A program made the position numbers and the translations under genes. Of a stretch of DNA of 61,117 nucleotides, positions 8,535 to 41,028 are shown piece by piece. Each line of letters starts with the position of its first letter. Position 1 is the first letter of the stretch. Source of the stretch: an uncultured Candidatus Saccharibacteria bacterium (GTDB taxonomy: Bacteria; Patescibacteriota; Dojkabacteria; J137; JAEUSD01). The stretch spans positions 4,450 to 65,566 of the forward strand of contig CAYUPY010000001.1 of NCBI GenBank assembly GCA_964446595.1, read 5' to 3'. A model generated the notes under the pieces. That model was given only the letters and a program-made list of their open reading frames with translations, was not told where the DNA came from and ran no database searches.

Positions 8535-8548
8535 TCTGATTTTTATCG

Positions 8549-9193
8549 TCAGTTACCGTAAACATTTGTGTCTATGTAGTCCTGGATACGTTCATCGCCT
8601 GTCTCTAAAAAGATAACCTCATCCAGGTCTACGCTATATCCCTCTAAAAGCTGTGTGGCCTCAACTCTGGCACCGGGATTGCTATATTGGACCAAGTAGT
8701 TATATTGTTTATCTGGCTCTAATTTTTCTATGGTAAAAGTTGCCTCCCAAATTGGCAGGATTTCGTCGATGCTGCTCACTGTAGGATTAGGAGTATAGAT
8801 ATCACTTCTCCCTCTTTCACCTTCTTGTTCTCTAATGCCAGTAGGGTAAAATAAAACGCTGCCTGCCACCAATTCTTGATAGCTAATACCTATTTTATCC
8901 GCGTAGCTCCTTAAAGTAGCCTCTACTGCTACTGGATCATCTGTATCAAAGTAAAAGACCAACTTATTACCATCAATAGCAATTGAGGTACCAGGATCGT
9001 TAATTACTGCTAGATTTTCGGTGATGTATTCCTGGCCACCAGTTGCCTTCTCTAACACATTTTCTCTGGCTTGTTCTTGAGCAGAACGGCTTAGCAATGA
9101 AATCAAACCGACCATTACCAGCATGAAGACCATTAAAACTACTGCTACCAAAGTAAAGTTTAAGCTTTTTAGGAATGTGACAAGTTTCTTCAT
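8549..9193 (-). CDS. membrane-anchored hypothetical protein (214 aa), immediately downstream of the giant gene
   Basis: N-terminal TM segment (LVAVVLMVFMLVMVGLISLL). A 3-nt gap to the stop of 9197..15421 suggests co-transcription. Confidence 0.6.
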   Translation of the reverse strand: MKKLVTFLKSLNFTLVAVVLMVFMLVMVGLISLLSRSAQEQARENVLEKATGGQEYITENLAVINDPGTSIAIDGNKLVFYFDTDDPVAVEATLRSYADKIGISYQELVAGSVLFYPTGIREQEGERGRSDIYTPNPTVSSIDEILPIWEATFTIEKLEPDKQYNYLVQYSNPGARVEATQLLEGYSVDLDEVIFLETGDERIQDYIDTNVYGN

Positions 9194-9196
9194 AAT

Positions 9197-9739
9197 TTAA
9201 TATCTCGGACTATATTTATTATAACCCCTACCTTCAAAATCTCCTCTTAACAGACTACAGTAGACTGATCCAGCAGAAGTAGCACAACTTCCATAGTATC
9301 TTCTTCCTGATTCGTAGCGCTGCTCAGGGGTTGAATTTACACTCATACCTGGCACGCGATCCTTAATTAAGTTCATTGCTCCACAAATTGCGTTACCGAT
9401 GTGCGCCGGGCAGATGTTTTGGCCTGGTTGATTGACGGAGACACCTAACTGCTCGGCGCAACTCAGCACTTTATTATATGCATGGCCCGAGGCGGAAAAG
9501 TACTCAAAAATTGTACCGGCTTGTAAAGTTTTGTCTGGACAGAACTGACCAGGTCCCACACAACTCAGACTGTTTACGAGTTCTTTATACTGATTAGGAT
9601 TACCTCCATAGATAGTGGCAATATCAAAACTAGGAGGTTGATTTACGCCAGCATACTCCACTTCAATAATTGAGTTAATTAGGCCGGGATCCACGCCTAC
9701 GATATTGGCCGCACTAGCAATCATTTCCGTTAAGCTACT
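9197..9739 (-). other. divergent lytic transglycosylase / lysozyme-like C-terminal module of the giant protein
   Basis: AANIVGVDPGLINSIIEVEYAG (Glu1922) resembles the SLT catalytic motif (..ES..). A Cys-rich tail follows. Confidence 0.4.
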
Positions 9740-16382: not shown

Positions 16383-18902
16383 ATGCAACTATCGGATCTA
16401 TTTTCAGAAAGAACTAATCGGGCACTACAAGAAGCGGCCCAATTTGCTGTGGAACACGGTCAACGAAGTATTGATACCGAACATATCCTATACGGGTTAG
16501 CCCAAGATGGAAGCGTAATGCAGAGGATATTTAAGGAACTAGATATAGAAGTAGCGGAGCTACTTACTCAGGTTGGAAATCTTGTGGCGCGTGGTGGTGT
16601 GCAAGGTACAACTCCGAGACTTAGTCCACGCGCCGCTCAAGCAATTCAACTTGCATATGAAGAAGCTTTGGATTTAAAACACAAATATATTGGAACTGAG
16701 CATTTGTTTTTAGGCTTACTGTTGGAAGGCGAAGGCTTAGCTGCCCAGCTTTTGCGTAAATCTGGAGTTACCCAAGCGAAGGCTCGTGATGCAGTAGTTA
16801 AAGTAGTAGGAGAGGGTGGACTTAAAGGAGAGGGCGAGGAAGTAGCAACAGGTGAAAGCCAGACTCCTACCCTAGACCAGTTCGCTAAGGATTTAACAGA
16901 TTTCGCTGCTCAAAATAAAATAGACCCTGTAATTGGCCGTAGCGATGAGATTACACGCGTAATTGAGATTTTGTCCAGACGCAAAAAGAATAATCCTGTA
17001 TTAATAGGAGAGCCAGGTGTAGGAAAAACCGCAATCGTAGAAGGGTTGGCTGTCCGGATTCAGAGTGGAAATGTACCAGACATACTAAAAGGTAAAAGAA
17101 TCAAAGCTCTGGATTTGGGGATGTTGTTAGCTGGTTCAAAGTATCGGGGAGAATTCGAAGAAAGGGCCAAAAAAATGATAGACGAGGTAGAACAAAGTGA
17201 CCGTAAAATCATTTTATTTATTGATGAGTTGCATACGATTGTTGGGTCTGGCGCGCGCGAGGGCGAGCTAGATCTTTCCAACATGCTAAAACCCGCCCTA
17301 GCGCGCGGCGGCATGCAAATCATTGGTGCTACTACCCTTAGTGAATACCAGAAATACATTGAAAAAGATGCCGCTTTAGAGCGTCGCTTTCAACCAGTCA
17401 TTGTAGATGAACCCACAGTAGATGAGACAATTCAAATCCTTCAAGGGATTAAGGAACGCTACGAGGCTCACCATAAATTGAAGATCAAAGACTCCGCCTT
17501 AAAAGCAGCGGCCAATCTAGCCGATCGCTATATTAAAGACCGTTTTATGCCAGACAAGGCAATTGACGTTATTGATGAGGCAGCTAGTCGCGTTAGATTG
17601 CGATTTACTAGTGAACCGGAGGAGATTTCTAAGCTACGTGTAGAAATTAAGAAACTGGAGACTGAAAGAGAAGCCTTAACAAGAGCAAATATGCACAAGG
17701 AAGCTGCAGAAACTAAAGTAGAAATCGAAAAACTCAAAGAACAACTTGAACCTATGCTAGAGGAGCTAGCCAGAGAACGAGGTACTGACACACCCGAGGT
17801 GCGGGTACATGATGTACAGGAAGTAATCTCTAGAATGACAGGCGTTCCAGTTACTGATCTTACAACTCAAGACGAATCTGACTTGGCAAATCTAGAAAAG
17901 CGCTTACATGAGCGCATTATTGGTCAAGATGAGGCTGTTACATTAGTCGCACAAGCCGTGCGCAGAGCTCGAGTAGGACTTAAGGACCCTAAGAGGCCTA
18001 TCGCCAGCTTTCTATTCTTAGGACCTACTGGTGTTGGAAAAACCGAGCTAGCAAAGGCTTTGGCAGAGACCGTATTTGGTGATGAGAACAATATCATCCG
18101 TCTAGATATGAGTGAATACATGGAAAAGTTTGCAGTTTCGCGCCTAATTGGCTCTCCACCAGGCTATGTTGGCTTTGAAGAGGGTGGACAATTAACTGAA
18201 CAGGTAAGGCGTAAGCCTTACTCATTAATCCTGCTAGATGAACTTGAAAAAGCTCATGCTGACGTATTTAATATCCTACTCCAAGTAATGGAAGATGGAA
18301 GATTAACAGATAGCAAAGGACGAGTGGTCGACTTCCGTAATACCATTATCATTGCCACCAGCAATCTGGGATCTGAGGTGATTTTAGAATTCTTACAAAA
18401 GCAAGATGAAGAACGTGTCGCTGCCGCAGATACTAATCAACCAGAAACAACTGAGACGGAAACTAAATACATTAAAACTAAGCCGGCCACTTCTCAAAAC
18501 GGTGATAGTATTATGAATAGCTGGAATAATCTTAAAACAGCTATTTTAAAAGTGTTGCAAAAGGCTTTCCGTCCTGAATTTGTAAACCGTTTCGATGAGA
18601 TAGTCATGTTTAAAGCACTTAGCATGGAGCAAATGGAAGGTATTGTTAAACTAATGCTTGATCGTACTGTTGAAATGCTTGCGGCACGTGACATCCAATT
18701 AGAAATCACAACGGATGCCGTAAAACATCTAGCTGCTATCAGTTATGATCCCGAGTTCGGAGCTCGCCCTGCACGTCGAACTATTCAACGTGAGGTAGAA
18801 AACAAACTTACCGAAAAGATTATTGCCGATGAAGTAAATGCAGGCGATAAGCTAAAACTCTCAGCACCTGAAGGCAACCTAACAATAGAGAAGATAACCT
18901 AA
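16383..18902 (+). CDS. clpC: ATP-dependent Clp/Hsp100 chaperone, ClpC-type (two Clp_N repeats, two AAA+ modules, short middle domain)
   Basis: Walker A motifs GEPGVGKTA and GPTGVGKTE, and a middle domain of about 65 aa. The ATG at 16383 is preferred over the TTG at 16365. Confidence 0.9.
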
Positions 18903-20176
18903 TCGTGCACAGCATTTTCAGCTGCTATCTTGCCATAGACGAGCGCACTCTGCCGCAGAGTGCGCTCTTGCGTCTCCCGATTTACGCTCGCCAACCCAAA
19001 CCTGGGCCACCAACCCTTATCCCACTCAAAATTGTCCATCAATGACCAGTGGAAATACCCTCTTACAGCTGCACCTTCCGCAATAGCGCCTTGTAGGCTA
19101 CGTAATGACTCTAAAATAAACCAAGCTCTATTTTTATCATCTGCATCCGCCAATCCGTGTTCTGTAATATAGACAGGCTTTTTCATATCCTGGTAAGCAT
19201 CTAGGGCCACGATACCTAAGCCTTGAGGATACAGTTCCCAACCTAAGTCGGACATATACTCAAAATTGTGTTCCATCCCTTTTTTAAACTTAAATCGGAA
19301 ATAATGATTAAGTGCCACAAAATCAAAACTACCATGTACGAGGTTTATAAAATAATGGTTTAGGAGGTAATCATATACTCCAGCCAATAAGTGCCCTTTC
19401 AGCCCAATACCAGGACGGCGTTGCACTAGGGCTATATTATCCACCACTGAAACCTGAAAGCGATGATCTACTGATTTGATTGCATAGTAAGCTTCTTGGT
19501 GAGCTTTGGCCATTCTGTTCAAGGCCCTGTAAAACTCAAATAAGTGCCAATGCCGCGTAGGTGGCACACCACCAACAACGTAAAACATTACTGCATACTG
19601 CACGGGTTCATTGAGGGTCATCCAGAATTTCACTAAGTCTTTGTATTCTGAAGTCACCCGCTTGGCATAGCGCACAAATAGCTTAATTGCATCCTTTTGC
19701 AGCCAGCCACCATTTGCTGAAAACCAACGGGGCAAGGTGTAATGATTTAGTGTCACAAAAGGTTCAATCCCTCTGTCACGGAGAGCCTTAATCATTAAGC
19801 GATAATGATCTATTGCTTTTTGATCAAAAACCCCAGGCTCCGGTTCAATCCTTGCCCAAGAAATAGAGAATCTGTAAGCATTTAAGTTTATTTCCTTAAG
19901 AAGATCAAAGTCTTGTTCATATAATTGAAGGTGATTTACACCCTCGCCAGAAATATAGTTTCCGGGATTTTCAGCTTCTTTACGAAATCTCTCCCATTCT
20001 GGAGGCATAGCGCCCACAATAGATGCTTGATTGCGAATACGTTTTTCTGCAGTCACAGCTAAAGCGTCAGCTTCCTGATGTTCCCATTCACTCCAATCAT
20101 CAACGGTATTTCCTTCAACTTGGTGATCAGAAGTCGCTGCCCCCCAGAAAAAACCCTCTGGAAATTCTAATTTCAT
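18899..20176 (-). CDS. glycoside hydrolase family 1 beta-glucosidase
   Basis: FPEGFFWGAATSDHQVEG, acid/base TLNEP, nucleophile region YITEHG, and WSLMDNFEW. Confidence 0.9.
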   Translation of the reverse strand: MKLEFPEGFFWGAATSDHQVEGNTVDDWSEWEHQEADALAVTAEKRIRNQASIVGAMPPEWERFRKEAENPGNYISGEGVNHLQLYEQDFDLLKEINLNAYRFSISWARIEPEPGVFDQKAIDHYRLMIKALRDRGIEPFVTLNHYTLPRWFSANGGWLQKDAIKLFVRYAKRVTSEYKDLVKFWMTLNEPVQYAVMFYVVGGVPPTRHWHLFEFYRALNRMAKAHQEAYYAIKSVDHRFQVSVVDNIALVQRRPGIGLKGHLLAGVYDYLLNHYFINLVHGSFDFVALNHYFRFKFKKGMEHNFEYMSDLGWELYPQGLGIVALDAYQDMKKPVYITEHGLADADDKNRAWFILESLRSLQGAIAEGAAVRGYFHWSLMDNFEWDKGWWPRFGLASVNRETQERTLRQSALVYGKIAAENAVHD

Positions 20177-21191: not shown

Positions 21192-23936
21192 TTAATCCTC
21201 TTCTCCTTCATTTCTACTAAATAGCGCATACAACCTTATTCTAACTGATTCTAGAGCCATGTAGTAGGCCGGAAAAGCTAAAATTACTAACAGAGTACTT
21301 GCTGCCAACCCAAAGATAATTGTAAAAGCTAAACTCTCCCAGAAAGGATCTGTTACTGCCAAAGGTAAAAGCCCTGCAATTGTAGTCACGGAAGTGGTCA
21401 CCAGAGGACGGAAGCGTAAACGCACAGTCTCAGTAATGGCATCCACCAAGTTTTTACCTTGTTGCCGCAACTGGTTAGCATAGTCAACTAACAGAATAGT
21501 ATTATTTACAACTATACCGGCGAGTGCAATTATCCCAATCATCACAAAGAAACTTAACGGATTATTGGTTACCGACAAGCCAGGAATCACTCCAGCCAGC
21601 GCAAATGGAATAGCTGCAAAAATTAGTAAAGGCTGTGTAAACGAGTTAAATAACACCACTAAAAGTCCATACATGATTACCAGGGCCGCCATAAAAGCAA
21701 TTCCAGTTTGGATAAATGATTCTAAGTTATCTGACTCAATACCCTGATCAAATCCTAGGGCATCGGAAGCTAAATTTAACGTCTCTAACCTATCTTCATC
21801 AAAAGCAGCCTTAATTTCAGATTCTAGATCTTGAAGTACTTCGGAAGTCACATCATCTTCACTAAACCTCGCCTGGATTTGTACAAATCTTCGGCCGTCA
21901 AGTTTATTAATACCTTCTAAATCACCCACAATGACTTCCTCTACTTCCAGTCTAGTATCGCTCACCTCGTTTTCATAAACATAACTTTCAATAAAGTCAC
22001 TTAAGGTACTTGTGGCAACTTCTAAATCAGCAGTCTGGGCATCATAGACCTGCATTTGAAATGGGAACTCGTTTGAAGGAGGGCCTGCAGAAATGATTCC
22101 TGCTGTTACTTTTGCGTCCTCATAATTCTCAAAATCTGCATTTAATTGTGCGACCAATTCTGGTGCAGTGATTTCACGTTCTTCCATAGGGGAGAGCTGA
22201 ATTTGAATTGAGTAACCAGACGTATTAGGCCCTGCAGCACCAAACCCACCAAAGTAACTTCCATACTCTACATGTTCACCAATTTGATAAATAATATCCT
22301 CCACCTCTCGAGCGCGCTCTATGGCCTGAGGTATCGTTAGCTCTTGACTATCGGTAAAATTAACACTGACGCTAATTGCCTCTGAGTCCTTTTCAGTAGG
22401 GAAAATATCAAATTGTAATCGAGGACCAAAGAAACTAACATTCACAAATAGTACGACCAACGAAACAACGATCACCGCCAGCACTAAAGGCCAGCTTTTC
22501 ACATAAGTATTTACGAAACGCGCTACGGCGGCGCCAACAAAATCTATAATGCCGCCGCCAAAGTTCAAAATTCTGTACCATGGCTGACGTCGCTGCTTTT
22601 CGGTAGTGGAGATTAATAACAAGTCTGCTAACCATGTAAACACGGTCAACGCTGCTATTAGCGAAATCGCCAAAGTCAATATAACTGTAATTGGTATTAG
22701 GGTAATAAACTCACCTAAAATCCCCCCGATCGCCAACATTGGTACAAAGACTGCCAATGTTGTAAGTGTACCCAAAGCATCGGCTACACCAATTTTTTGA
22801 ATAGCTTCCTTTACAGCCTTCACTCCTTTTTGACCAGCACGCTTTTCTTGATCAATTGCCTCTACAACTACAATAATATCGTCCACTAACAATCCAATTA
22901 CCAGAATTAGCCCAAACAAAGAAATCACGTTCAAGGTATACCCCATTAAATAGAGAGAAAAGAAAACCCCCGAAAGCACAAATGGCAAAAACAATGCTGA
23001 TACTAAAGCCGCGCGCCAATTAATAAACAAAAGCACAACTATCACAATTACTAACAGAGCAGAAAGCGTATTTTGTTCGAGTGACGTAATTTGATTGTTC
23101 AGCTCCACAGCAATATCTGCACCATAAACAATCGTAGTTTCCGCGGAGATTACCTCATCATCGCGTAATCCCTGCACTGCATTACGTACTGCCTCAGATA
23201 ACTGCACTGCGTCAAAGCCCTCAGCCTTATTTAGGCCTACATTTATTGCAGGAGCCACCTTTAATTCATCTTCACCTGAAGTACTCTCTTCACGATAAAG
23301 CACCCGCGAAAAAGCGACTCTTTCTTCGGTGGTTTGATTTGTGAAAGGATTTGTACGTTCCTCAAACTGTTGTTTTACCTCTATTTCGTCAACTTCATTT
23401 AATTCACTCAACTCAGCAACTATTTTATTTGCCACCTTTTCCAGCTCAGTCAGATTAAGCTCAGGGTTAGAAACGGAAAAAATAAACTCATACACACCAT
23501 CAGCCGAAGCAGCATCAATAGCTGAAACAAAGACGTTAGCAGCTTGTGGTAATGCAAATTTATCCACGATCGCTTCCACCTCTGTAGCGCCTTCTGCCGA
23601 AGTCGTATCTTCCGTAAATCTGACAGACAAACTAAACCCATTAGCCGTAGTAGACGAATTAATTGATTCTACTATCTCTAAATCCGTAATAGCATCTTCC
23701 AGCGGTTTAGTGAGTTTATTATTAACTACACTAACATCATCTACAAAATAACTACCTTGCACAAACGCAATCGGGAACTGGATCTCAGGGAAACCTTCCC
23801 GCTTTAGCAGTGTAGTATAACTAACAAGACCGGCAACAAACACAGCCAATAAAATTAAAATAGAAGCGCGAGAATTCTTTACAAACCAACCGGAGACGCG
23901 CGCAATTGCATTATATTTTGGTGCTTTCATAGACAT
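21192..23936 (-). CDS. RND-superfamily efflux/export permease (AcrB-like, 914 aa)
   Basis: 12-TM layout with two large loops. TM4-like motif LVIGLLVDDIIVVVEAI and a second-half repeat. Confidence 0.85.
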   Translation of the reverse strand: MSMKAPKYNAIARVSGWFVKNSRASILILLAVFVAGLVSYTTLLKREGFPEIQFPIAFVQGSYFVDDVSVVNNKLTKPLEDAITDLEIVESINSSTTANGFSLSVRFTEDTTSAEGATEVEAIVDKFALPQAANVFVSAIDAASADGVYEFIFSVSNPELNLTELEKVANKIVAELSELNEVDEIEVKQQFEERTNPFTNQTTEERVAFSRVLYREESTSGEDELKVAPAINVGLNKAEGFDAVQLSEAVRNAVQGLRDDEVISAETTIVYGADIAVELNNQITSLEQNTLSALLVIVIVVLLFINWRAALVSALFLPFVLSGVFFSLYLMGYTLNVISLFGLILVIGLLVDDIIVVVEAIDQEKRAGQKGVKAVKEAIQKIGVADALGTLTTLAVFVPMLAIGGILGEFITLIPITVILTLAISLIAALTVFTWLADLLLISTTEKQRRQPWYRILNFGGGIIDFVGAAVARFVNTYVKSWPLVLAVIVVSLVVLFVNVSFFGPRLQFDIFPTEKDSEAISVSVNFTDSQELTIPQAIERAREVEDIIYQIGEHVEYGSYFGGFGAAGPNTSGYSIQIQLSPMEEREITAPELVAQLNADFENYEDAKVTAGIISAGPPSNEFPFQMQVYDAQTADLEVATSTLSDFIESYVYENEVSDTRLEVEEVIVGDLEGINKLDGRRFVQIQARFSEDDVTSEVLQDLESEIKAAFDEDRLETLNLASDALGFDQGIESDNLESFIQTGIAFMAALVIMYGLLVVLFNSFTQPLLIFAAIPFALAGVIPGLSVTNNPLSFFVMIGIIALAGIVVNNTILLVDYANQLRQQGKNLVDAITETVRLRFRPLVTTSVTTIAGLLPLAVTDPFWESLAFTIIFGLAASTLLVILAFPAYYMALESVRIRLYALFSRNEGEED

Positions 23937-26327: not shown

Positions 26328-27878
26328 ATGCTGCCCATTCGCGATAAGTTTGGTTCTAGATTATTCTTAGTGCTTACTACGCTTATCCTACTGTTGGCTA
26401 CAATCGCAGTAGGAGTAGGCGGTGAGTATTTAATCCGGCTACGTGCTCAAGATAACTTCCGCCTGCAGTTGGTTGAAACTGCAGGCAACCTACAATCCCG
26501 GCTTGATAGTTATGGCCAATTGATACTGGGAATAGAAGCATTCATTACACTTAACGATAATGTCACCCTTTCTGATCTAAACGCCTATACTGAAGGCATT
26601 AGACTAAAACGAGATTTCCAGGGGGTATCTTCAATTGGTTTGGTGAGAGGGATTACAAAAGAGGAATTACCTCAATTTCGAGATAGCTTGACTGTAGAAG
26701 TAGCAGAGTTTACTACAGGCAGAATCAACACCTTGCCGTTGATGCCTACAGGAAATGAAATTTTGACTGAGGAAAATTCAATTGACGGCAAATATTATGT
26801 AGTTGAGTATATAGGCCCAGCTACTGATGACACTTTACGCATATCTGGCCTAAACACGGCACAATTCGCCGATAGAAGACAGGCAATCATCAAAGCGTTA
26901 GGAAGCGAAAAGTCTGTCGCTACAGACAACTTAGAGTTGGCTACCGGATTAAATGGCTTCATTCTGTATAAGCGAATCGCGACACAAGACGGAAACGCCG
27001 AGGATCTAATTGCCCTATCTTTCCGTTCAAATGACTTTTACCGTGAACTACTAAAAGACTTATTAAATACTCAAGACATTCGCGTCAGCCTCAAAGAAGC
27101 TGATAATTCAGTTTTGTTTGAAGAAGGCGGTATCATTGATCCTTATTTTAAAGAAGATATCATACTTAATTTTGGCGGCCGTCAGTTTGTATTCACACTT
27201 GAGGGGGATAAAAACTTCCGCCAAATTAGCACTTCTATAAATTTGCCCTTACTGCTTTCCGCAGCAGTGGGAATTACTTCAACTCTGATCCTACTCTTCA
27301 TCATTAATTTAAATAAAACCAAAGAAGATACAGAAAAATTAGCAGCAGACTCTGCTTCTAAAGCAGAAAGGCTTGAAGATCAAATTCAGACTATTTTAGA
27401 CAATACTTCAATTATGGTTTATGTTAAAGGTAATGATGGTAAATACCAATTAGTAAATAAAGAGTTTTCACGACTAGTAGGAGAGCAGACTATTAATATG
27501 ATTGGTAAAACTGATTTTGATATTTTCCCTGCTTCGATTGCTGCCCGGATTGTCGAAAATGATCGTAAAGTAGTCAGTACAAAAGCTAGGCAGCAGTTCG
27601 AGGAAAAAATACCAAATACAAATGGCACTGAAGAGATTTACTACAGCCAAAAGTTCCCTCTGTTAAATGCCCAAAATGAAGTGTATGCTATTGGTGGAGT
27701 GTCTACCAATGTGACTGAGCAAAAGAAAAATACAGAAAAACTTGAAGAACGACGGGCCGAACTTGAAAGAGTAAATAATATGATGATTGATCGAGAGCTT
27801 AAAATGATTGAATTAAAGGAAAGAATCAAACAACTTGAACAGACAGAAGGAGGGGAACCGGATAATGAGCAAACTTGA
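26328..27878 (+). CDS. membrane sensor protein: periplasmic CHASE-like domain between two TM segments, cytoplasmic PAS and coiled coil, no kinase core
   Basis: TM1 LFLVLTTLILLLATIAVGV, TM2 LPLLLSAAVGITSTLILLFII, and a PAS segment (ILDNTSIMVYVKGNDGKYQLVNKEF...). No H-box or ATPase motifs. Confidence 0.75.
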   Translation: MLPIRDKFGSRLFLVLTTLILLLATIAVGVGGEYLIRLRAQDNFRLQLVETAGNLQSRLDSYGQLILGIEAFITLNDNVTLSDLNAYTEGIRLKRDFQGVSSIGLVRGITKEELPQFRDSLTVEVAEFTTGRINTLPLMPTGNEILTEENSIDGKYYVVEYIGPATDDTLRISGLNTAQFADRRQAIIKALGSEKSVATDNLELATGLNGFILYKRIATQDGNAEDLIALSFRSNDFYRELLKDLLNTQDIRVSLKEADNSVLFEEGGIIDPYFKEDIILNFGGRQFVFTLEGDKNFRQISTSINLPLLLSAAVGITSTLILLFIINLNKTKEDTEKLAADSASKAERLEDQIQTILDNTSIMVYVKGNDGKYQLVNKEFSRLVGEQTINMIGKTDFDIFPASIAARIVENDRKVVSTKARQQFEEKIPNTNGTEEIYYSQKFPLLNAQNEVYAIGGVSTNVTEQKKNTEKLEERRAELERVNNMMIDRELKMIELKERIKQLEQTEGGEPDNEQT

Positions 27879-33360: not shown

Positions 33361-33810
33361 ATGCAACCTTATCTTAAAAAAGTATCAGCTTTCACCTTAC
33401 TTGAGGTGATATTAGTGGTAGCAATTCTAGCTTTATTAGTTAGTGCTGGTTTATCTATTGGCATCCGTTCATTTAGCCAGCAGCAGCTAACGGCAAATAG
33501 GGATCTAGTGGTGAACATGTTGTATCAAGCTCAAGCATACGCCAGAGCAGGTGTGAATGATACAAATTGGGGAATTCGTATTCAGCCAAACAATCAGTTG
33601 TACTTGTTTTCGGGCAACACTTTTGCCACCAGAGATGTAAGTGAGGATGTTATCTTTAACCTAAGTGATACCATAGTGGCAAGCGGAACAACAGAAATTG
33701 TATTTAATAGAGTTTCTGGCTTTCCAGTTAGCACCGCCGCCATCAGCATAGCTGATGGCGGCGAAACTTTACCTATAAACATCAACAGCATTGGGACAAT
33801 TGACCTGTAA
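33361..33810 (+). CDS. minor pilin / pseudopilin (149 aa)
   Basis: Class III signal-like N-terminus KKVSA/FTLLEVILVVAILALLV with Glu at +5. Confidence 0.7.
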   Translation: MQPYLKKVSAFTLLEVILVVAILALLVSAGLSIGIRSFSQQQLTANRDLVVNMLYQAQAYARAGVNDTNWGIRIQPNNQLYLFSGNTFATRDVSEDVIFNLSDTIVASGTTEIVFNRVSGFPVSTAAISIADGGETLPININSIGTIDL

Positions 33811-35563
33811 CCAAAAGTTACCCAGTTTTTCCGCGGTAGAGATTATTATTAGTGTGGCAGTTATTGCTTTTGTTGTAATCACTATTGCAGGTACAATCAT
33901 TGGAGCCACAACTGGTCCAGCCTCGACTGCTGAACAAACCCAAGCTGCTGAATTATTAAATGAAGGATTTACAGCTGTTAAAGCTATTAGGGACAACGAT
34001 TTTGCTTTACTGTTAGCAGGCTCACATGGGCTTCAAAATAACGGTAATCAATGGGAATTAAATGGAAGCAGTGATTCAATTGAAGGCTTTACCCGTACTG
34101 TTTCCATTACAAACATAGATGCGAATACTAAAGAAGTGACAGTAGATATTAGCTGGACTCCACAATTAGGAGGTCCAAAGTCTATCAGTTCGAGCCAGGT
34201 AATTACTAACTACTTAAGAACAGTGGCGATCAATCCCCCTACCGGCACTCCAGTAGACTGGTCAACTCCTCAAATAGTTGGAAGAGGAAACACAACTGGC
34301 AATAACGACGGTCGTGATGTGCGTATAAACGGTAACTATGCCTACGTAATAAATTCTGGGGGTAACAACGACTTTACAGTGTTCGATATCTCAGATATTA
34401 CTAATCCCACCAGCATCGCCACCCTAAACGTGGCTAATAATGCAGCACGTATGGCTTATAGTAATGACTATGTGTATATCTCTTCCAGTGACAACAACAA
34501 TGAAATCACAGTAGTAAATGTCTCTAGTCCTAGCAACCCAAATATTGCTACCACGATTAATTTACCCCGTAATGCAAACGTAAATGGTCTATCAATTCGT
34601 GACAATTACCTATACGCCACGCGCAGCAGAGACACTGGGAACGGCGCAGACGAATTTATTGTCATTGATATTGCTAACCCAAGCAGTCCCAATATTGTAG
34701 GTGGTGTGAACTTAAATCAAACAGTTTTTGATGTTACTTTAGTCGGAAACTATGCATATTTATCTTCAGCAAATAACGCCGCAGAAGGATACATTATAAA
34801 TGTCACTAACCCGACCAATCCTACCACTGCTGGAACTATTAACTTGTCAGGCAACAACGATGGTTATACAGTGGGGGCCACAAGCACTCATTTATTTCTT
34901 GCCAGACTAAATAGTAATGTACATGTCTTTAGCCTCAGCAACCCTACTAATCCTCAAGAGGTGGCTGTTTTTGATGCCGCGGGTAGAGTTGAAAGGATTA
35001 TGTTCGATCCCACTTCAACTTATGCCTTTATGCCAAATAGTCAGAACTATAATATGGACTTTGAAGTGGTGGATATTAGTACTATTACATCTCCAGTACA
35101 AATTGACCACCTAAATACAAATGGCATTCAGTACAGCATGGACTTTGACCCATCACGCAACTTAATAACTTTAGTAGGAAACGCCGATAACGAAGAGTTA
35201 CTGTTAATTTCCGATAAAGTGGTATTGGCCCCGGGCGAGGATCTTTGCAGGGTAAACTATAATATTGGAAGTCAGTGGGCTACAGGATTTACGGTAACTG
35301 TGGTAGTTAATAATATTAGCAGTAGTGACATTAGTAGTTGGCAAATTGCATGGGGCTTTGATGGCAACCAGAACATAATTAACTATTGGAACGCCAATAT
35401 TTCTCAGAGCGGACAAAATGTTATTGGTGAGAACCTTACCTATAACTCTACTATCCCTGCGGGCGGCAACCAGTCATTTGGCTTCCAGGCCACATACTCT
35501 GGCACAAATGGTCCAATTACTAGCGATCAATTTACTGTTAACGGCATTCAATGCGTAAACTAA
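33791..35563 (+). CDS. modular pilin: prepilin N-terminus + LVIVD-type beta-propeller repeats + C-terminal CBM2-like module
   Basis: FSAVEIIISVAVIAFVV, and 6-7 repeats of the type NYAYV...FDISDxxNP. The CBM2-like tail at 35246-35560 runs CRVNYNIGSQWATGF...NYWNAN...FGFQATY...NGIQC. The start is TTG at 33791 or 33800 and is uncertain. Confidence 0.8.
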   Translation: MGQLTCNQKLPSFSAVEIIISVAVIAFVVITIAGTIIGATTGPASTAEQTQAAELLNEGFTAVKAIRDNDFALLLAGSHGLQNNGNQWELNGSSDSIEGFTRTVSITNIDANTKEVTVDISWTPQLGGPKSISSSQVITNYLRTVAINPPTGTPVDWSTPQIVGRGNTTGNNDGRDVRINGNYAYVINSGGNNDFTVFDISDITNPTSIATLNVANNAARMAYSNDYVYISSSDNNNEITVVNVSSPSNPNIATTINLPRNANVNGLSIRDNYLYATRSRDTGNGADEFIVIDIANPSSPNIVGGVNLNQTVFDVTLVGNYAYLSSANNAAEGYIINVTNPTNPTTAGTINLSGNNDGYTVGATSTHLFLARLNSNVHVFSLSNPTNPQEVAVFDAAGRVERIMFDPTSTYAFMPNSQNYNMDFEVVDISTITSPVQIDHLNTNGIQYSMDFDPSRNLITLVGNADNEELLLISDKVVLAPGEDLCRVNYNIGSQWATGFTVTVVVNNISSSDISSWQIAWGFDGNQNIINYWNANISQSGQNVIGENLTYNSTIPAGGNQSFGFQATYSGTNGPITSDQFTVNGIQCVN

Positions 35564-37299
35564 AAGCTTTCTCTGCTGTAGAAATAATTATTAGCGTGGC
35601 AATTATTGCTTTTGTAGTTATTGGCGTAGCAGGAGTCATAATTGGGGCAACTACTGGCCCCACTAATACCTCATTACAAACTAAAGCCAATGAGATCTTA
35701 AATGAAGGCTTTACAGCTGTAAAATCTATCAGAGATAGAGATTTTGCTTCTCTTTTAGCCGGCGAGCATGGGGTTCAAAATACTAGTAATCAGTGGCAAC
35801 TCAACGGGAGTAGCGACATCCAAGATGGCTTTACTAGAAGGGTCAACATCACCAATGTAGATACTAATACCAAACAAATTTTGATCCAAGTCGATTGGGC
35901 TAGTGAGCTAGGCGGTACTAAGAGTATTTCTTCGACCCAAATAATTACTAATTATCGCCGGAGCGTGGAGATAGCACCACCGCCAGGCTTACCAACTACA
36001 GACTGGTCAACGCCGCAAATTGTCGGCAAGGTAAATTTACCTGCGGATGGAAGAGATGTGCGTCTGAACGGTAATTATGCTTATGTGATTACGACAGGAA
36101 GCAATAATGACTTTTTAATCTTTGATATCTCAAATCCTGCCAGTCCTACTCAAGTAAGTTCACTGAATATTGTCAATAACCCGGTACGCATGGATTATGC
36201 GAACGACTATGTATACGTTACTACTAGCAATCTCAAAGAAATAGTGGTGATTAATGTTGCCAATCCTACTAATCCTTCCTTGGTTAGACAAATTGACCTA
36301 CCTACTGGAGCCGATGCTAACGGGTTACGTGTGGTAGGTGAATACTTGTACGTTACACGAGCCTCTAATTCGAAAGCCAATTCAAATGAGGTGACTGTGC
36401 TTAGCCTTTCAAATCCAGGAAATCCAACTGTAGTTGGAGGTTTTAACCCAAACCAGACAATATATGACATTGAGGTGGTAGGAGACTATGCGTATGCAAC
36501 TTCTGCTTGGAACGACGGTGAGGTATATATTTTAAATGTTAGTAACCCAGCCGCTCCCACTAGTGCTGGCACTATCAATCTCCAAGGCAATGTGAATGGC
36601 TATTTTATTGGGCGTACAGGCAGATATCTATTTGTAGGCAGAACAAATACCAATGTAGTTATTTACGATATTCTTAATCCCACCTCTCCACAAGAAGTAG
36701 CTGCCTATACGGTTGCTGGCACTCCGCAGCGAATTATCTTTGATACTAGTGGACAATATGGATTTATTCCGAATAGCACAAATTATAACGCTGACTTCGA
36801 GGTCCTAGACCTTTCAACAATTACTAGCCCCAACCAACTTGATATCCTTAATAATGCAGGCACTCAGTACAGTGCTGATTATGATAGTACTCAAAACTTA
36901 ATCGCACTAGTAGGAAATGGGGTTAACGAACGTTTGATTTTGGTTAAGGATCAAGTAGAACTGGAGCCTGGCGAAGACCTGTGCATGGTTAACTATACGA
37001 TCCAGAACCAATGGGCGAATGGATTCGTAGTTGATGTCAGAATTAATAACGTTAGTAATAATGAAATTAGCAGTTGGAAAATAGAGTGGAATTTTCCAGG
37101 AGATCAGAATATTATTAATTACTGGAATGTTAATCTCTCACAAAGCGGTCAAGCTGTAATAGGGGAGAATTTAGGCTACAATTCTACGATACCGGTGGGG
37201 GGAAGCCAGACGTTTGGTTTCCAGGCAACTTACAGTGGCGCAAATGCTGCTTTAGCGAGCGATCAATTTACTGTTAATAGAGTGCAATGTATAAACTAG
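35551..37299 (+). CDS. modular pilin paralogue: prepilin N-terminus + LVIVD-type repeats + CBM2-like module
   Basis: MRKLKA/FSAVEIIISVAIIAFVV. Same architecture as the upstream gene, with a CBM2-like tail at 36982-37296 (CMVNYTIQNQWANGF...VQC). Confidence 0.8.
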   Translation: MRKLKAFSAVEIIISVAIIAFVVIGVAGVIIGATTGPTNTSLQTKANEILNEGFTAVKSIRDRDFASLLAGEHGVQNTSNQWQLNGSSDIQDGFTRRVNITNVDTNTKQILIQVDWASELGGTKSISSTQIITNYRRSVEIAPPPGLPTTDWSTPQIVGKVNLPADGRDVRLNGNYAYVITTGSNNDFLIFDISNPASPTQVSSLNIVNNPVRMDYANDYVYVTTSNLKEIVVINVANPTNPSLVRQIDLPTGADANGLRVVGEYLYVTRASNSKANSNEVTVLSLSNPGNPTVVGGFNPNQTIYDIEVVGDYAYATSAWNDGEVYILNVSNPAAPTSAGTINLQGNVNGYFIGRTGRYLFVGRTNTNVVIYDILNPTSPQEVAAYTVAGTPQRIIFDTSGQYGFIPNSTNYNADFEVLDLSTITSPNQLDILNNAGTQYSADYDSTQNLIALVGNGVNERLILVKDQVELEPGEDLCMVNYTIQNQWANGFVVDVRINNVSNNEISSWKIEWNFPGDQNIINYWNVNLSQSGQAVIGENLGYNSTIPVGGSQTFGFQATYSGANAALASDQFTVNRVQCIN

Positions 37300-37790
37300 T
37301 TAAAAAAGGTAGTATGGCGGCCACAACCTTATTTGAGTTAATTATATATATTGGCGTGGCCGCCATCATCGGCATAGTAGTGGTAAACCTTTGGCAAATA
37401 ATCCAGCAAACTAACCAGCGTAATCAAGTAGTACAACTAACCACCCATCAAGCAAATAGTGCCATGCAGGTAATGTTATACCTGGTCGAAGTAGCTGATA
37501 GTGTTACTGCGCCAGCCACAGGGGATAATGCTAGTACACTTCAACTCGTAATCAGCGGAGTCAACAATACGATTTCAGTCCAAGGGGATAGACTGCGCCT
37601 AACACAAGGCGCCAGTGAAATTGACCTTACAACCAGTGATTTTAATATTTCAGGCTTCAGCGTTAGTAATGCGGGAAGTTCAAATGACAGTATTCAAATA
37701 AGCTTTCAACTGGCTCCAGATAACCCAGATAACGAACCGAGTCTAGATTTTACATATGTAGCTTCAGGAAATTATGCTAGACCTTACTAA
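37287..37790 (+). CDS. minor pilin-like protein (167 aa)
   Basis: N-terminus ..MAA/TTLFELIIYIGVAAIIGIVV with Glu at +5. An alternative start is ATG at 37314. Confidence 0.6.
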   Translation: MYKLVKKGSMAATTLFELIIYIGVAAIIGIVVVNLWQIIQQTNQRNQVVQLTTHQANSAMQVMLYLVEVADSVTAPATGDNASTLQLVISGVNNTISVQGDRLRLTQGASEIDLTTSDFNISGFSVSNAGSSNDSIQISFQLAPDNPDNEPSLDFTYVASGNYARPY

Positions 37791-38178
37791 ACAAGAAAAG
37801 TTTGACGGCTACATTGCCTTAACAAGTGTGATGATTTTATTAATAATCGTGGGAGTATTTATGAGTTACGGCTTTCTGAATATTATTAGCTTTAATGATA
37901 CTAGTTCAGTAACCCGCGACGCTGTGCAGGCGCACAGCGTCGCCAACTCCTGTGCTGAAATCGCCATCAGTCAGCTTCAGGAGGATTTTACCTATGCTGC
38001 AGGCAGTGTTTACGGAGTGGGAAGTTACACTTGTACCGTCTCTAGTATCACAGGCACGGGCAATACAAACCGTACTGTGGAGACTACTGCCCAAGTAGGG
38101 CTTTCCCTAGTTAGGGTGCAGGTAGTTATTGACACAATTCGTCCAAATGTCATAATAAGCCAATGGGAAAGAATCTAA
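37774..38178 (+). CDS. PilX/GspK-like minor pilin (134 aa, no Glu+5)
   Basis: G/YIALTSVMILLIIVGVF hydrophobic N-terminus and two Cys. Overlaps both neighbouring genes. Confidence 0.5.
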   Translation: MLDLTKQEKFDGYIALTSVMILLIIVGVFMSYGFLNIISFNDTSSVTRDAVQAHSVANSCAEIAISQLQEDFTYAAGSVYGVGSYTCTVSSITGTGNTNRTVETTAQVGLSLVRVQVVIDTIRPNVIISQWERI

Positions 38179-38594
38179 AACCCGCATTTACTTTAATCGA
38201 AATTGTTTTAGCTATTGCTGTCCTTGCAATTCTGAGTGCAGCTACCATTAGTGCGGTAAATCCAGCACTGCGGCTTTCACAAGCAAGGAACCTAGAACGT
38301 AGCAGCCATGTTGCGCAAATTTTAGCGGGAGTGAAAGGCTACGCATCGGAACAGGGTCAACAACTTTCAGATCTCGGCTCTATACCTACATGCCCGTCTA
38401 CAGCAACTATTGGAACAGCTGGTATTAATCTAGGGGCTACATTAGTAGATGAGTACATTACCCAAATGCCAACAGATCCCACAACTGGCAACTTGGCAAA
38501 TACAGGGTATACAATATGTCGAACAGCCTCAGGAAGAGTAGAAGTAAGTGCACCCAATGCAGAGTTAGGCGAAAATATATCTCTACGCTCATAG
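38163..38594 (+). CDS. type IV pilin (143 aa), candidate major subunit
   Basis: MGKNLKPA/FTLIEIVLAIAVLAILSAATISAV. Small size, last gene of the cluster. Confidence 0.75.
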   Translation: MGKNLKPAFTLIEIVLAIAVLAILSAATISAVNPALRLSQARNLERSSHVAQILAGVKGYASEQGQQLSDLGSIPTCPSTATIGTAGINLGATLVDEYITQMPTDPTTGNLANTGYTICRTASGRVEVSAPNAELGENISLRS

Positions 38595-39017: not shown

Positions 39018-39290
39018 ATGGCTAAAAAGAAGACTAAACTAGTGTACGGCAATATAGATGCCACAGCCGACTTTGCACTATACTTTGAGCATGTAAAGTT
39101 AGCCGACCTCACTCGCGTAGATCGATCTTTGTATCAGGAGGCCTTGGACCGTGTTGGTACAATATTGCTTAAAGATCTGGAAGCACGTGAAGATTATGAT
39201 CGCCAGCAAGGTGATGCTAACTTTGGGATTCGCAAAACTTTAGAGTTCTTGCGTAATGCAACTAGTGTTAAAGATTTAGCTGCAGCATAA
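39018..39290 (+). CDS. hypothetical protein (90 aa)
   Basis: ORF followed by a strong hairpin. No motif recognised. Confidence 0.5.
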   Translation: MAKKKTKLVYGNIDATADFALYFEHVKLADLTRVDRSLYQEALDRVGTILLKDLEAREDYDRQQGDANFGIRKTLEFLRNATSVKDLAAA

Positions 39291-39312: not shown

Positions 39313-39350
39313 TGAACGCGCGGCCAGCTTCGCTGGCCGCGCGGCGTTCA
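39313..39350. terminator. GC-rich hairpin between convergent genes
   Basis: GCGCGGCCAGC-TTC-GCTGGCCGCGC (11-bp stem) extended by GAAC/GTTC. No U-tract. Confidence 0.55.
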
Positions 39351-39363
39351 ACCAATCAAGTAT

Positions 39364-41028
39364 TTAGGCACTTGCAAATAGATCTCGTCCATCCATCACC
39401 TGAGGCTGAGGCAACCCCATAATCTTTAGTACTGTTGGAGCCAGGTCACACAAGGTCCCCATCATCACCTCCGGTGGCATTTTACGGTTCTCCGTCACAT
39501 ATATCAGTGGCACCATATTTAACGAGTGCTCAGTATCCACCTCACCTGTTTCTAGGTTGATCATTTCCTCGATATTTCCATGATCAGCAGTAATAATAAT
39601 CTCTCCGCCTTTTTCTAATACTTTCGGTACAATCTTTCCTAAACATTCGTCTGCTACCTCTACCGCCCGAATCCCAGCAGATAATACTCCCGTATGGCCA
39701 ACCATATCAGTTAGCGCAAAATTAACAAAAATAAAGTCATACTTATCTGATTCAATTTCTTCAATAAGCCTTTCAGTGACCTCATACGTGCTCATTTCAG
39801 GTTTCTCATCATAAGTTTTCACCTCTCTGGGAGAAGGGATTTCTACGCGATCCTCCCCTGGGAAGGCTTCATTCCGGCGGTTATTGAAAAAGTAAGTGGC
39901 ATGAGGGTACTTTTCAGATTCAGTGATACGCAGCTGCTTCAAACCTGCGTTGGAAATAATTTCTCCAAGTGTCTCCTGCGGGTGCAGTGGTGGAAATATC
40001 TGTAAATCAGGGAATTGATGGTTAGCGCTGTTCTCTTTATCATCATCAATCAAATCATCTACTAAATCAGATTCATTTTCAGGTTTTTCCTCAGTCTGTG
40101 CTCGTTGCATGGGAATTCCTTTTTGATAGTTAGAGAACCCGGCATAAAGGACATTTTCCCGCTTCAAGCGATCAAAGTCACTAAATTCCTTAAACTCAAA
40201 AGCCATAGTAATCTGCATTGCTCTATCCGCACGATAGTTAAAACAGACCACAGCGTCATTATCTTGCACAACCGCTACAGGCTCTTCATTGTCACCAACG
40301 ATTACACATGGCATTACAAACTCATCAGTTTCTCCTTGCGCATATGCATCTTCTACCGCGTCACGATAATTCTTAAACCTACGTCCTTCGCCTTTCACCA
40401 TCATGTCGTAGGCTAGAGCGGTACGCTCCCAACGCGAATCGCGATCCATGCCATAAAACCGACCTGTCAAACTCGCGATTTGTCCCACCCCAATTTCGTT
40501 CATCTTATTTTGCAAAGAATCTAAGTACCCAATCGCTGACTTGGGTGATGTATCACGACCATCCAAAAGTGCATGTACAAACACTCTGTCTGCTGCAAAC
40601 CCTTGGCGCTTCGCAAACTCCAAACAAGCATACAAATGTTCCTGCGAAGAATGCACCCGACCATCACTTACTAATCCTATAAAATGCAGACTTGAATTAT
40701 GCTCTTTGACGTGATTTGCCACCACAACTAGATTGTCATTATCATAAAAACTGCCATCACGAATTGAATCATTAATTCTAGAAATTTCCTGCTTTAAAAG
40801 ACGACCAGCTCCAATAGTCATATGTCCTACTTCACTATTCCCCATCACGCCATCAGGAAGTCCCACATAATGTTCAGAAGCCTGCAACAAAGTATGACAA
40901 TATTTTGGCCAATACTTATCTAAATTAGGAGTATTGGCCAGGGTCACCGCATTACCTTCGTTTGGTACATCAACTCCAAGTCCATCTAAAATCAACAACA
41001 CAACTGGTTTAGGTCGAGATTCGCTCAT
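39364..41028 (-). CDS. gpmI: 2,3-bisphosphoglycerate-independent phosphoglycerate mutase
   Basis: LLILDGLG, GNSEVGHMTIGAGR, GLVSDGRVHSS, and TADHGN. Carries an acidic insertion (EEKPENESDLVDDLIDDDKENS). Confidence 0.95.
   Translation of the reverse strand: MSESRPKPVVLLILDGLGVDVPNEGNAVTLANTPNLDKYWPKYCHTLLQASEHYVGLPDGVMGNSEVGHMTIGAGRLLKQEISRINDSIRDGSFYDNDNLVVVANHVKEHNSSLHFIGLVSDGRVHSSQEHLYACLEFAKRQGFAADRVFVHALLDGRDTSPKSAIGYLDSLQNKMNEIGVGQIASLTGRFYGMDRDSRWERTALAYDMMVKGEGRRFKNYRDAVEDAYAQGETDEFVMPCVIVGDNEEPVAVVQDNDAVVCFNYRADRAMQITMAFEFKEFSDFDRLKRENVLYAGFSNYQKGIPMQRAQTEEKPENESDLVDDLIDDDKENSANHQFPDLQIFPPLHPQETLGEIISNAGLKQLRITESEKYPHATYFFNNRRNEAFPGEDRVEIPSPREVKTYDEKPEMSTYEVTERLIEEIESDKYDFIFVNFALTDMVGHTGVLSAGIRAVEVADECLGKIVPKVLEKGGEIIITADHGNIEEMINLETGEVDTEHSLNMVPLIYVTENRKMPPEVMMGTLCDLAPTVLKIMGLPQPQVMDGRDLFASA

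Follow-up and report, generated by a model that had tools for sequence, protein, structure and literature searches.

A tandem pair of predicted modular pilins

The window analysed here, a 61,117-nucleotide stretch of contig CAYUPY010000001.1 (GenBank assembly GCA_964446595.1), carries a type IV pilus (T4P) operon in which two adjoining open reading frames (ORFs) on the forward strand, ORF1 and ORF2, encode proteins that are homologous over their full length. Each protein joins a pilin-like N terminus to an LVIVD-type beta-propeller and ends in a family 2 carbohydrate-binding module (CBM2), and the pair occupies slot 2 of a pilin cassette of five genes, preceded by a sensor block and the genes for the assembly ATPase PilB and the platform protein PilC, with four further pilin-like genes flanking it (Table 1). 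A sequence-only reading of the window had placed the pair inside a pilB-pilC-pilin operon, and the T2SSE and T2SSF matches, together with the flanking pilin-like ORFs, bear this out. The Pfam E-values exclude chance as the source of the domain matches and of the PilB and PilC matches. For the domain scan we used Pfam-A with its curated cutoffs (24 bits for CBM_2, 20.2 for LVIVD, 22.4 for Beta_propel PF09826 and 21.2 for N_methyl PF07963).

The same reading had described the genes as paralogs diverged at the DNA level, and this too holds. The proteins are 60% identical over their full length, and the DNA reaches 74-78% identity in the best-kept stretches, at a constant offset of 1742 nt; a repeat comparison of the two genes found no long identical tracts. 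The DNA divergence and the lack of such tracts indicate that the duplication is old and that the copies have not been homogenised. Gene conversion between the two genes was ruled out on the same figures, the longest DNA repeats reaching no further than this level of identity. ORF1 is taken here from the TTG at 33800, which gives the protein deposited at NCBI (P0003); the first TTG, at 33791, would give 590 residues.

Among 5.8 billion clustered proteins, the full architecture of pilin, LVIVD propeller and CBM2 was found on two contigs only, the 75-kb contig to which the window belongs and an 87-kb Logan contig, L001, which is fully syntenic with it. ORF1 is nearer to the ORF1 of L001 than to ORF2, so that orthology is kept across the two contigs and the duplication must be older than their split.

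The full-length AlphaFold2 model of ORF2, built from 19 sequences, has a mean predicted local distance difference test (pLDDT) score of 79. In it, linkers of low confidence at residues 137-148 (disordered) and 471-476 set apart three confidently folded modules. On this model, ORF1 and ORF2 fit the definition of modular pilins given by Raynaud et al. in 2021 (PMC8179133), namely a pilin module joined through a short linker to a module that is not peculiar to T4P.

Table 1. Coordinates of the pilus operon and of the modules of ORF1 and ORF2 in the window.
Feature	Position	Strand	Evidence
CHASE-PAS sensor protein, 516 aa, first gene of the regulatory block	26328..27878	+	L001 ortholog (61%) with CHASE, PAS_4
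PAS histidine kinase, 643 aa	27835..29766	+	L001 ortholog (75%) with PAS, HisKA, HATPase_c
Response regulator receiver protein, 156 aa	29783..30253	+	L001 ortholog (80%) with Response_reg
PilB/GspE-type assembly ATPase, 558 aa	30282..31958	+	Pfam T2SSE E 6.4e-121, MshEN; L001 ortholog 91%
PilC/GspF-type platform protein, 462 aa	31967..33355	+	Pfam T2SSF E 2.1e-37, two stretches
Slot 1 minor pilin, 149 aa, leader KKVSA/FTLLE, GspH/ComGD-like	33361..33810	+	N_methyl 22.3 bits (cutoff 21.2)
ORF1, trimodular pilin (slot 2), leader ...KLPS/FSAVE	33800..35563	+	587 aa (TTG 33800; protein P0003)
ORF1 LVIVD beta-propeller, approximate bounds by alignment to ORF2	34280..35218	+	Pfam LVIVD E 5.7e-17, four stretches; Beta_propel
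ORF1 CBM2 module, Cys to Cys	35246..35554	+	Pfam CBM_2 E 1.2e-25; tblastn of other CBM2s maps to 35246-35554
ORF2, trimodular pilin (slot 2), leader MRKLKA/FSAVE	35551..37299	+	582 aa
ORF2 pilin module: leader, alpha1 helix aa 9-63, beta-sheet aa 71-133	35551..35958	+	AlphaFold2, family alignment
ORF2 seven-bladed LVIVD beta-propeller, aa 156-468	36016..36954	+	Pfam LVIVD E 1.4e-22, five stretches; AlphaFold2
ORF2 CBM2a module, aa 478-580 (C478, C580, W488, G491, W525, Y543)	36982..37290	+	Pfam CBM_2 E 1.1e-25
Slot 3 pilin-like protein, 167 aa, leader ...SMAA/TTLFE, Glu +5	37287..37790	+	E 4e-10 to third cassette gene of L006
Slot 4 pilin-like protein, 134 aa, DG/YIALT, without Glu5, GspK-like in that respect	37774..38178	+	
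Promoter-like site TTGACA-16-CATAAT, 11/12, with TG	38129..38156	+	Consensus match only
Slot 5 small pilin, 143 aa, leader KPA/FTLIE, candidate major pilin	38163..38594	+	N_methyl 23.7 bits; IV_pilin_GFxxxE 24.4 bits

The CBM2 tail

Both tails matched CBM_2 (PF00553, IPR001919) over profile positions 1-101 of 101, with scores of 90.2 and 90.4 bits. In a phmmer search the tail aligned end to end with the cellulose-binding domain of Cellulomonas fimi Cex (1EXG; E 1.6e-17), and the next matches were the CBM2a of C. cellulovorans EngD and then cellulose- and chitin-binding CBM2s of Streptomyces; identity to characterised CBM2a modules is 34-38%. The cysteines that bound the two tails (CRVNY...GIQC and CMVNY...VQC), already picked out from the sequence, are the conserved disulfide cysteines of CBM2: C478 and C580 of ORF2 align with the disulfide pair of Cex, and the terminal pair (C4 and C106 of the domain) is invariant in 31 CBM2 domains. 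In the same alignment, W488, W525 and Y543 of ORF2 correspond to W17, W54 and W72 of Cex, and G491 to the glycine three residues past W17. We take the roles of these tryptophans and of the glycine from published work, in which a change of Gly to Arg at that site turns a 2a cellulose binder into a 2b xylan binder (PMC5935602). The three aromatic residues, the glycine and the cysteine pair are invariant in all four tails known.

Within the full-length model the tail reached a pLDDT of only about 55, as just four sequences covered the CBM2, whereas modelled as an isolated domain from 31 CBM2 sequences it reached 96.8, with a predicted TM score of 0.87. Foldseek placed this isolated-domain model closest to the cellulose-binding modules, with TM scores of 0.88-0.92 to 6QFS, 0.88 to 3NDY and 0.85 to 1EXG and root-mean-square deviations of 1.2-1.6 A; TM scores were lower to the chitin-binding CBM2 2RTT (0.75) and to the xylan-binding CBM2b 1XBD (0.64). 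The assignment of the tail to CBM2, first made by eye, is thus upheld by both profile and fold, and by alignment and model together the tail is of the CBM2a type and carries a cellulose-binding signature.

The propeller

The LVIVD family (PF08309, IPR013211) was matched with 61.2 bits by ORF1 and 79.1 bits by ORF2, and Beta_propel with 26 and 35 bits, respectively. The repeats, counted as six or seven from the sequence, correspond in the ORF2 model to seven four-stranded blades (27 strands at residues 156-466, pLDDT about 90). When the full-length ORF2 model was searched against the PDB with Foldseek, it returned only generic seven-bladed propellers of the WD40/G-beta-like kind, with TM scores of about 0.7 on the target and 10-14% identity, which confirms the fold and allows no function to be read from it.

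We followed divergence by per-domain identity; synonymous sites are saturated at the 61-78% amino acid identity seen between orthologs. The propeller is the most diverged domain, at 61% between orthologs and 50-53% between paralogs, and the best-kept domains are the CBM2 (62-78%) and the N-terminal helix (67-75%). In a family alignment of 19 sequences, eight columns are invariant, mostly structural ones.

We considered membership in the family of the PilY1/PilC adhesins of T4aP (IPR008707), in which a beta-propeller adhesin stands at the pilus tip with four minor pilins and whose variable modules also occur in modular pilins (PMC8179133). It was rejected: no Pfam match to that family was obtained at E <= 1, and PilY1, which lacks a class III leader, is no pilin, whereas the propellers of ORF1 and ORF2 each follow a pilin N terminus in the same protein. 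ORF1 and ORF2 may nevertheless act like PilY1 without belonging to its family.

The pilin module

The N terminus of ORF2 reads MRKLKA/FSAVEIIISVAIIAFVVIGVAG and that of ORF1 ...QKLPS/FSAVE..., the slash marking the predicted cleavage site. Both follow the leader pattern, in which a short basic stretch ends in a small residue (-1) and Phe (+1) and Glu (+5) are followed by about 20 hydrophobic residues. A homology search returned a family of proteins of about 465-510 aa, several with Patescibacteria names (Pacebacteria, for example), that covers the first 80% of ORF2, all but its CBM2. Glu +5 (Glu11 of ORF2) is invariant in 19 of the 19 aligned members, most of which have the canonical leader [KR]G/F[ST]x[VI]E, and an EGxEAVRSIRD block follows the hydrophobic helix; for two members, P0061 and P0074, a PF07963 match is precomputed. 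At -1, most of the 19 have Gly, ORF2 has Ala and ORF1 has Ser; Ala at this position is common to the N_methyl-positive pilins of the same operon (KKVSA/FTLLE and KPA/FTLIE) and to cassette pilins of relatives. In the ORF2 model, a 55-residue helix (residues 9-63) precedes a sheet (71-133), with a pLDDT of 84-92 over residues 41-100, and this predicted combination of helix and sheet matches the lollipop fold of pilins. The invariant Glu5, the canonical leaders in the family, the modelled helix and sheet and the fixed place in the cassette argue, as the sequence-only reading had it, for a pilin N terminus over a plain transmembrane anchor.

The pilin cassette

Successive genes of the cassette overlap by 13-17 nt. 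Slot 1 scored 19.2 bits with NCBIfam IV_pilin_GFxxxE (cutoff 16.3), gave weak ComGD and GspH matches and is 36% identical to the first gene of the corresponding cassette on L006, a Dojkabacteria scaffold. The slot 3 protein matched no Pfam or NCBIfam family; its counterpart on L006 has a canonical leader, KA/FTLIE. The slot 4 protein shares 35% identity (E 1e-20) with the first 135 aa of P0132 and 32% with the N terminus of the Dojkabacteria protein P0138, and the slot 5 pilin is homologous to the pilin modules of P0129, P0130, P0134 and P0166. Glu5 is thus present in slots 1-3 and absent from slot 4, as in the GspH-I-J-K-type order; slots 2-4 gave no significant match to the GspI, GspJ or GspK families.

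The promoter-like site in Table 1 is the best sigma-70-like site of the region. It falls within the last part of the slot 4 gene and ends 7 nt short of the gene for the 143-aa pilin; the total of such sites in the region is not above that of shuffled sequences. By its sequence and position it could drive the major pilin gene from within the operon, which would fit a highly expressed subunit.

Relatives of the cassette

The sequence-only reading had proposed to look for the same architecture in the pil operons of related genomes. L001 has it; the other relatives have in slot 2 an LVIVD pilin without CBM2. Between the window and L001, identity is 91% for PilB and 87% for iPGM, and 66% for ORF1 and 63% for ORF2. 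A scan of the GTDB species representatives with a four-sequence alignment and with PilB found no relative, and a scan of the JGI metagenomes with the four-sequence alignment found no further copy. The next relatives of PilB are about 54% identical, the first of them with a name being Candidatus Dojkabacteria, followed by other Patescibacteria. Judged by the named relatives of PilB and of the CBM2-bearing pilins, the organism would be a Dojkabacteria-like member of the Patescibacteria. Proteins identical to those of the window have also been assembled from run SRR7048223 (Logan contigs L010 and L011), so the organism can be recovered from public data.

The cassette with an LVIVD pilin in slot 2 is present on L001, L006, L007, L008 and L009. 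On L007-L009 the order is sensor, response regulator, PilB, PilC, a protein of about 146 aa and an LVIVD pilin of 473 or 803 aa without CBM2, followed by proteins of about 170, 134-138 and 171 aa and then a PAS kinase; the response regulator stands directly before PilB, as it does in the window, and related operons have a CHASE4 sensor at the matching place. On L006 the cassette runs 151, 468 (LVIVD), 170, 396 and 165 aa, and each gene matches its counterpart in the window. The 396-aa protein (P0138, 2386-3576) is a pilin without Glu5 in which two CBM2 domains interrupt the pilin domain, the pilin-like C terminus resuming after them; P0132 has the same scaffold with its CBM2 pair at the C terminus instead. 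Since slot 2 of the relatives holds one LVIVD pilin without CBM2, such a pilin is the ancestral and conserved form in this slot, and the tandem duplication and the CBM2 tails were added in the lineage of the window and L001.

The 803-aa slot 2 pilins of the Dojkabacteria genomes L007 (13542-15953) and L008 (13566-15977) exceed the usual 470 aa by about 330 aa and probably hold a second propeller or another module. In another protein, P0005 (942 aa), two propeller units are clear.

Kinship of the CBM2 domains

With the tail as query, HMMER found 4,791 matches when 1.84 billion representatives were searched exhaustively. In a neighbour-joining tree of 280 extracted domains, the four tails fall inside a clade of 17 members that consists almost wholly of CBM2s borne by pilins of the 143-aa type (P0129, P0130, P0134 and P0166), by pilins of the 134-aa type (P0132 and P0138) and, as a pair, by a glycoside hydrolase family 5 (GH5) cellulase (P0131). 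Its named members are 'cellulose binding domain-containing proteins' of Candidatus Dojkabacteria, and outside the clade identity to the tail is about 50% at most. In 350 of 500 column bootstraps the CBM2 nearest to the tails was one borne by a pilin or one from the same sample, and such CBM2s made up 3.7 of the top 10 neighbours against 0.47 by chance, an 8-fold enrichment. By raw distance, some CBM2s of high-GC type (P0261, P0210 and P0236) are nearly as close, at about 50% identity, and a few enzyme-borne CBM2s also come near.

It had been thought conceivable that the module was acquired horizontally from Actinobacteria. Direct acquisition of that kind is unsupported, given that the nearest CBM2s are on Dojkabacteria pilins and on the GH5 cellulase from the sample of the sister organism; one CBM2 lineage shuffled among pilus subunits within the Patescibacteria is, in our moderately confident view from the tree, the better reading.

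Three Dojkabacteria proteins of the same sub-clade (WKZ27704.1, MBW7954090.1 and MCA9387245.1) are pilin-like and carry CBM2s as ORF1 and ORF2 do. MCA9387245.1 is P0138, which occupies slot 4 of the same cassette and adjoins the 468-aa LVIVD pilin. In these proteins, however, a CBM2 pair is borne by a pilin of the 134-aa type, lacking Glu5, or of the 143-aa type, and the LVIVD pilin has no CBM2, whereas in the window the CBM2 is on the duplicated LVIVD pilin.

Several other genes with this module are of interest in themselves. P0130, on a Logan contig of 5.5 kb, encodes a prepilin of 708 aa with two CBM2 followed by two PA14 domains, four carbohydrate-binding modules in all. P0261 (720 aa) joins a Tad/TadE-type pseudopilin N terminus to CBM2 and DUF11 and has a high-GC-type composition; from its sequence, CBM2 grafting may also have taken place on Tad pili outside the Patescibacteria. 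In Dojkabacteria CP129475.1 (L002, 8734-20656), an orphan gene for a pilin with two CBM2s lies outside any pil operon and adjoins a CHASE4 sensor, a sortase and a 2794-aa CLIPPER-domain protein. On L004 two DsbB genes (8299-9178) lie about 0.8 kb upstream of P0166 (10001-10789), with one 243-aa gene between, so that a disulfide-forming system stands near a protein whose CBM2 requires a disulfide.

Proposed function and its alternatives

We propose, with moderate confidence, that ORF1 and ORF2, as paralogous minor type IV pilins of three modules each, act as adhesins for crystalline cellulose (or chitin), displayed on the pilus and probably located at its tip. The leader would be cleaved by a prepilin peptidase encoded elsewhere. 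When assembly begins, the hydrophobic alpha1 helix would dock the proteins into the filament alongside the other minor pilins, which would leave them at the tip. From there the propeller and the CBM2, both bulky, would extend outwards, and the predicted planar face formed by W488, W525 and Y543 would bind crystalline cellulose, possibly chitin, and tether the cell to the polymer, to be processed by a CBM2-bearing GH5 cellulase and a glycoside hydrolase family 1 (GH1) beta-glucosidase. The propeller, as the fastest-diverging domain, might bind a second ligand, the two paralogs might provide two tip variants, and the two-component genes with CHASE and PAS domains probably adjust expression in response to signals from outside.

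Two enzymes give this proposal a metabolic setting. The window itself encodes a GH1 beta-glucosidase (18899-20176, reverse strand; Pfam Glyco_hydro_1 E 5e-73), 14 kb upstream of the pilus operon, which fits a diet of cellobiose or cellodextrins. P0131, in which a GH5 domain is joined to two CBM2s, and the CBM2-bearing pilin P0166 come from the same sequencing run as L001. The contigs of both carry housekeeping genes (ATP synthase, DNA polymerase III and ribosomal proteins) and have a GC content of 0.39, and their tetranucleotide composition correlates with that of L001 at r 0.96-0.97, as closely as does that of the window, other Dojkabacteria loci giving 0.84-0.92.

Several points weigh against the proposal. 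The N_methyl profile PF07963, on which the pilin assignment was to have been checked, gave only 14.9 bits with ORF2 (E 0.021), below its cutoff, and no match at E <= 1 with ORF1; because this profile falls short, the call of a class III signal is drawn from the leader motif and the family alignment, together with the fold and the surrounding genes. When the pilin module (residues 1-150) was searched by sequence against the PDB, no solved pilin or minor-pilin relative was found, and neither a prepilin peptidase (Peptidase_A24) nor PilT was found among the window ORFs scanned. The third aromatic residue of the binding strip is Tyr and not Trp, a conservative change that is also seen in 3NDY, and CBM2a modules can bind chitin too. 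That the sister organism makes a CBM2-targeted GH5 endoglucanase is suggested by shared sample and composition, not by binning. Leader cleavage, filament assembly and cellulose binding are predicted from sequence and models, and the tip location is proposed from gene order and by analogy to GspH-I-J-K sets. Finally, the cultivated Patescibacteria are all obligate episymbionts (PMC11623550), which makes attachment to a host cell a serious alternative.

On that alternative, ORF1 and ORF2 would serve episymbiosis by adhering to host cells: at the pilus tip the propeller, perhaps together with the CBM2, would read glycans on the surface of a host microbe, and cellulose would not be the physiological ligand. 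The closest parallel is Nanosynbacter lyticus TM7x, in which PilX2, which with PilX1 forms the comparable system, is a propeller pilin proposed as a tip adhesin and required for efficient host binding, its deletion halving that binding (PMC11623550). Consistent with a role of this kind, the LVIVD propeller pilin is the element kept in the cassettes of relatives that have no CBM2, and the propeller diverges most, as a determinant of specificity would. Against it, the CBM2 retains the full 2a signature for crystalline cellulose and is structurally nearest to cellulose-binding CBM2a, CBM2s of the same sub-clade occur on a GH5 cellulase, a GH1 beta-glucosidase is encoded nearby, and no host is known. 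PilX2 differs, moreover, in having an RCC1-type propeller, no CBM and a ligand thought to be a host cell-wall glycan, whereas here the propeller is of LVIVD type and is joined to a cellulose-type CBM2a. We consider host attachment as the sole function unlikely, though it is to be taken seriously, and the two readings could be combined, the propeller addressing a host and the CBM2 a substrate.

A further possibility is that the proteins are not filament subunits at all but membrane-anchored surface adhesins, or parts of a short pseudopilus, like that of type II secretion, that exports CBM2-bearing cellulases. The size of the proteins (about 60 kDa each), the N_methyl scores, the lack of PilD and PilT in the window and the resemblance of the cassette to the GspH-I-J-K order could all be read in this way, and pili are predicted here from genes. 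Nonetheless, Glu5 is invariant and the leader is kept across the family, large modular pilins do enter pili (PMC8179133), a small N_methyl-positive candidate major pilin with a promoter-like site closes the cassette, and T4P are near-universal in the Patescibacteria and have been visualised there (PMC11623550). We regard this explanation as improbable.

Least probable by far, and rejected by us as unsupported, is a catalytic propeller, that is, a pilus-tethered enzyme such as a hydrolase or oxidase aimed at polysaccharide by the CBM2: CBM2s do usually accompany enzymes, the top Foldseek match of the full model is the propeller phosphotriesterase 5HRM, and weak Pfam and NCBIfam matches were obtained to SBP56/methanethiol oxidase and 6-phosphogluconolactonase propellers, but these matches reflect the generic fold, fall below cutoffs and are equalled by WD40/G-beta propellers, no conserved metal-binding or catalytic motif was identified, and most of the eight invariant columns are structural.

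Comparison with known systems

The sequence-only reading had described pilins with grafted modules as known from a few Gram-positive T4P. They are not limited to these: the InterPro survey of 2021 catalogued 1,219 modular pilins in 264 architectures (Raynaud et al., PMC8179133), and the TM7x propeller pilin PilX2 belongs to the Saccharibacteria. Dataset S1 of the survey lists about 30 proteins with pilin and LVIVD (IPR012902-IPR013211; 1 to 13 repeats; among the proteins is one from Candidatus Falkowbacteria) and three with pilin and CBM2 (IPR012902-IPR001919). Modular pilins serve as adhesins (PMC8179133), and PilB (vWA) and PilC (lectin) of Streptococcus sanguinis show the design seen here: a short linker connects a small pilin module with a bulky one that binds a ligand, and the gene lies among pilus genes (PMC8179133). 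None of the surveyed proteins, however, joins LVIVD to CBM2, whereas here three modules are combined and the gene is duplicated in tandem; the N_methyl signature of ORF1 and ORF2 is also too weak to be picked up by an InterPro-based survey. In the literature searched we found no functional studies of LVIVD or CBM2 pilins.

Cellulose binding by T4P subunits has precedents in Ruminococcus albus (CbpC, GP25/PilA), R. flavefaciens (Pil3) and Fibrobacter succinogenes, in which such subunits bind cellulose and are required for adhesion (PMC3672088). Those pilins are of about 14-25 kDa and have no recognisable CBM, whereas here a canonical CBM2a would be carried on a minor pilin in a reduced-genome lineage. 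The CBM2a prototypes of Cex (1EXG, 6QFS) and EngD (3NDY) share with our tails the fold, the Cys pair, W17, W54 and the 2a-type Gly, but are borne by glycoside hydrolases and not by a pilin-propeller.

The combinations pilin-LVIVD and pilin-CBM2 were therefore already known separately. New are the design of pilin, propeller and CBM2a, the presence of two such genes in tandem, their position within a minor-pilin cassette that is conserved in Patescibacteria and has a fast-evolving propeller in one slot, and the evidence for one CBM2 lineage moving between pilus subunits and a cellulase. We suggest only tentatively that a Dojkabacteria-related lineage has spread one CBM2a sub-clade over its pilus and a cellulase (the duplicated propeller minor pilin, the minor pilin without Glu5, major-pilin-like subunits and the GH5 endoglucanase), giving a cellulose-grappling pilus as a minimal counterpart of the cellulosome anchor. 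On this tentative reading, some ultra-small bacteria of the candidate phyla radiation (CPR) would attach to insoluble polymer and feed on it directly, instead of or besides living on a host cell.

The sole genetic evidence on surface attachment in Patescibacteria so far concerns one Saccharibacterium, in which a propeller-bearing minor pilin aids host binding. The present locus allows the ligand of a module on a pilus to be predicted from sequence, as crystalline cellulose or chitin. If the prediction is correct, it would provide a concrete mechanism of substrate attachment for a reduced-genome bacterium and question the assumption that all CPR pili target host cells; the compact adhesin design of pilin, propeller and CBM might also be of use for the display of binding modules on filaments.

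Other features of the window

No RNA family was found in the window with Rfam at gathering thresholds. Downstream of the cassette, a hairpin with a 12-bp stem (39317-39343; 11 G-C pairs) lies between a 90-aa ORF (39018-39290) and the convergent phosphoglycerate mutase gene (39364-41028) and is likely a bidirectional terminator. Upstream, a giant ORF of 2074 aa (9197-15421, reverse strand), whose sole Pfam match is to the NAGPA phosphodiester-glycosidase family at residues 1459-1600, probably encodes a large surface protein. Also on the reverse strand (21192-23936), a 914-aa transporter of the AcrB/RND type (E 1e-102) with a SecD/SecF-like C terminus is unexpected in a presumably monoderm organism of reduced genome.

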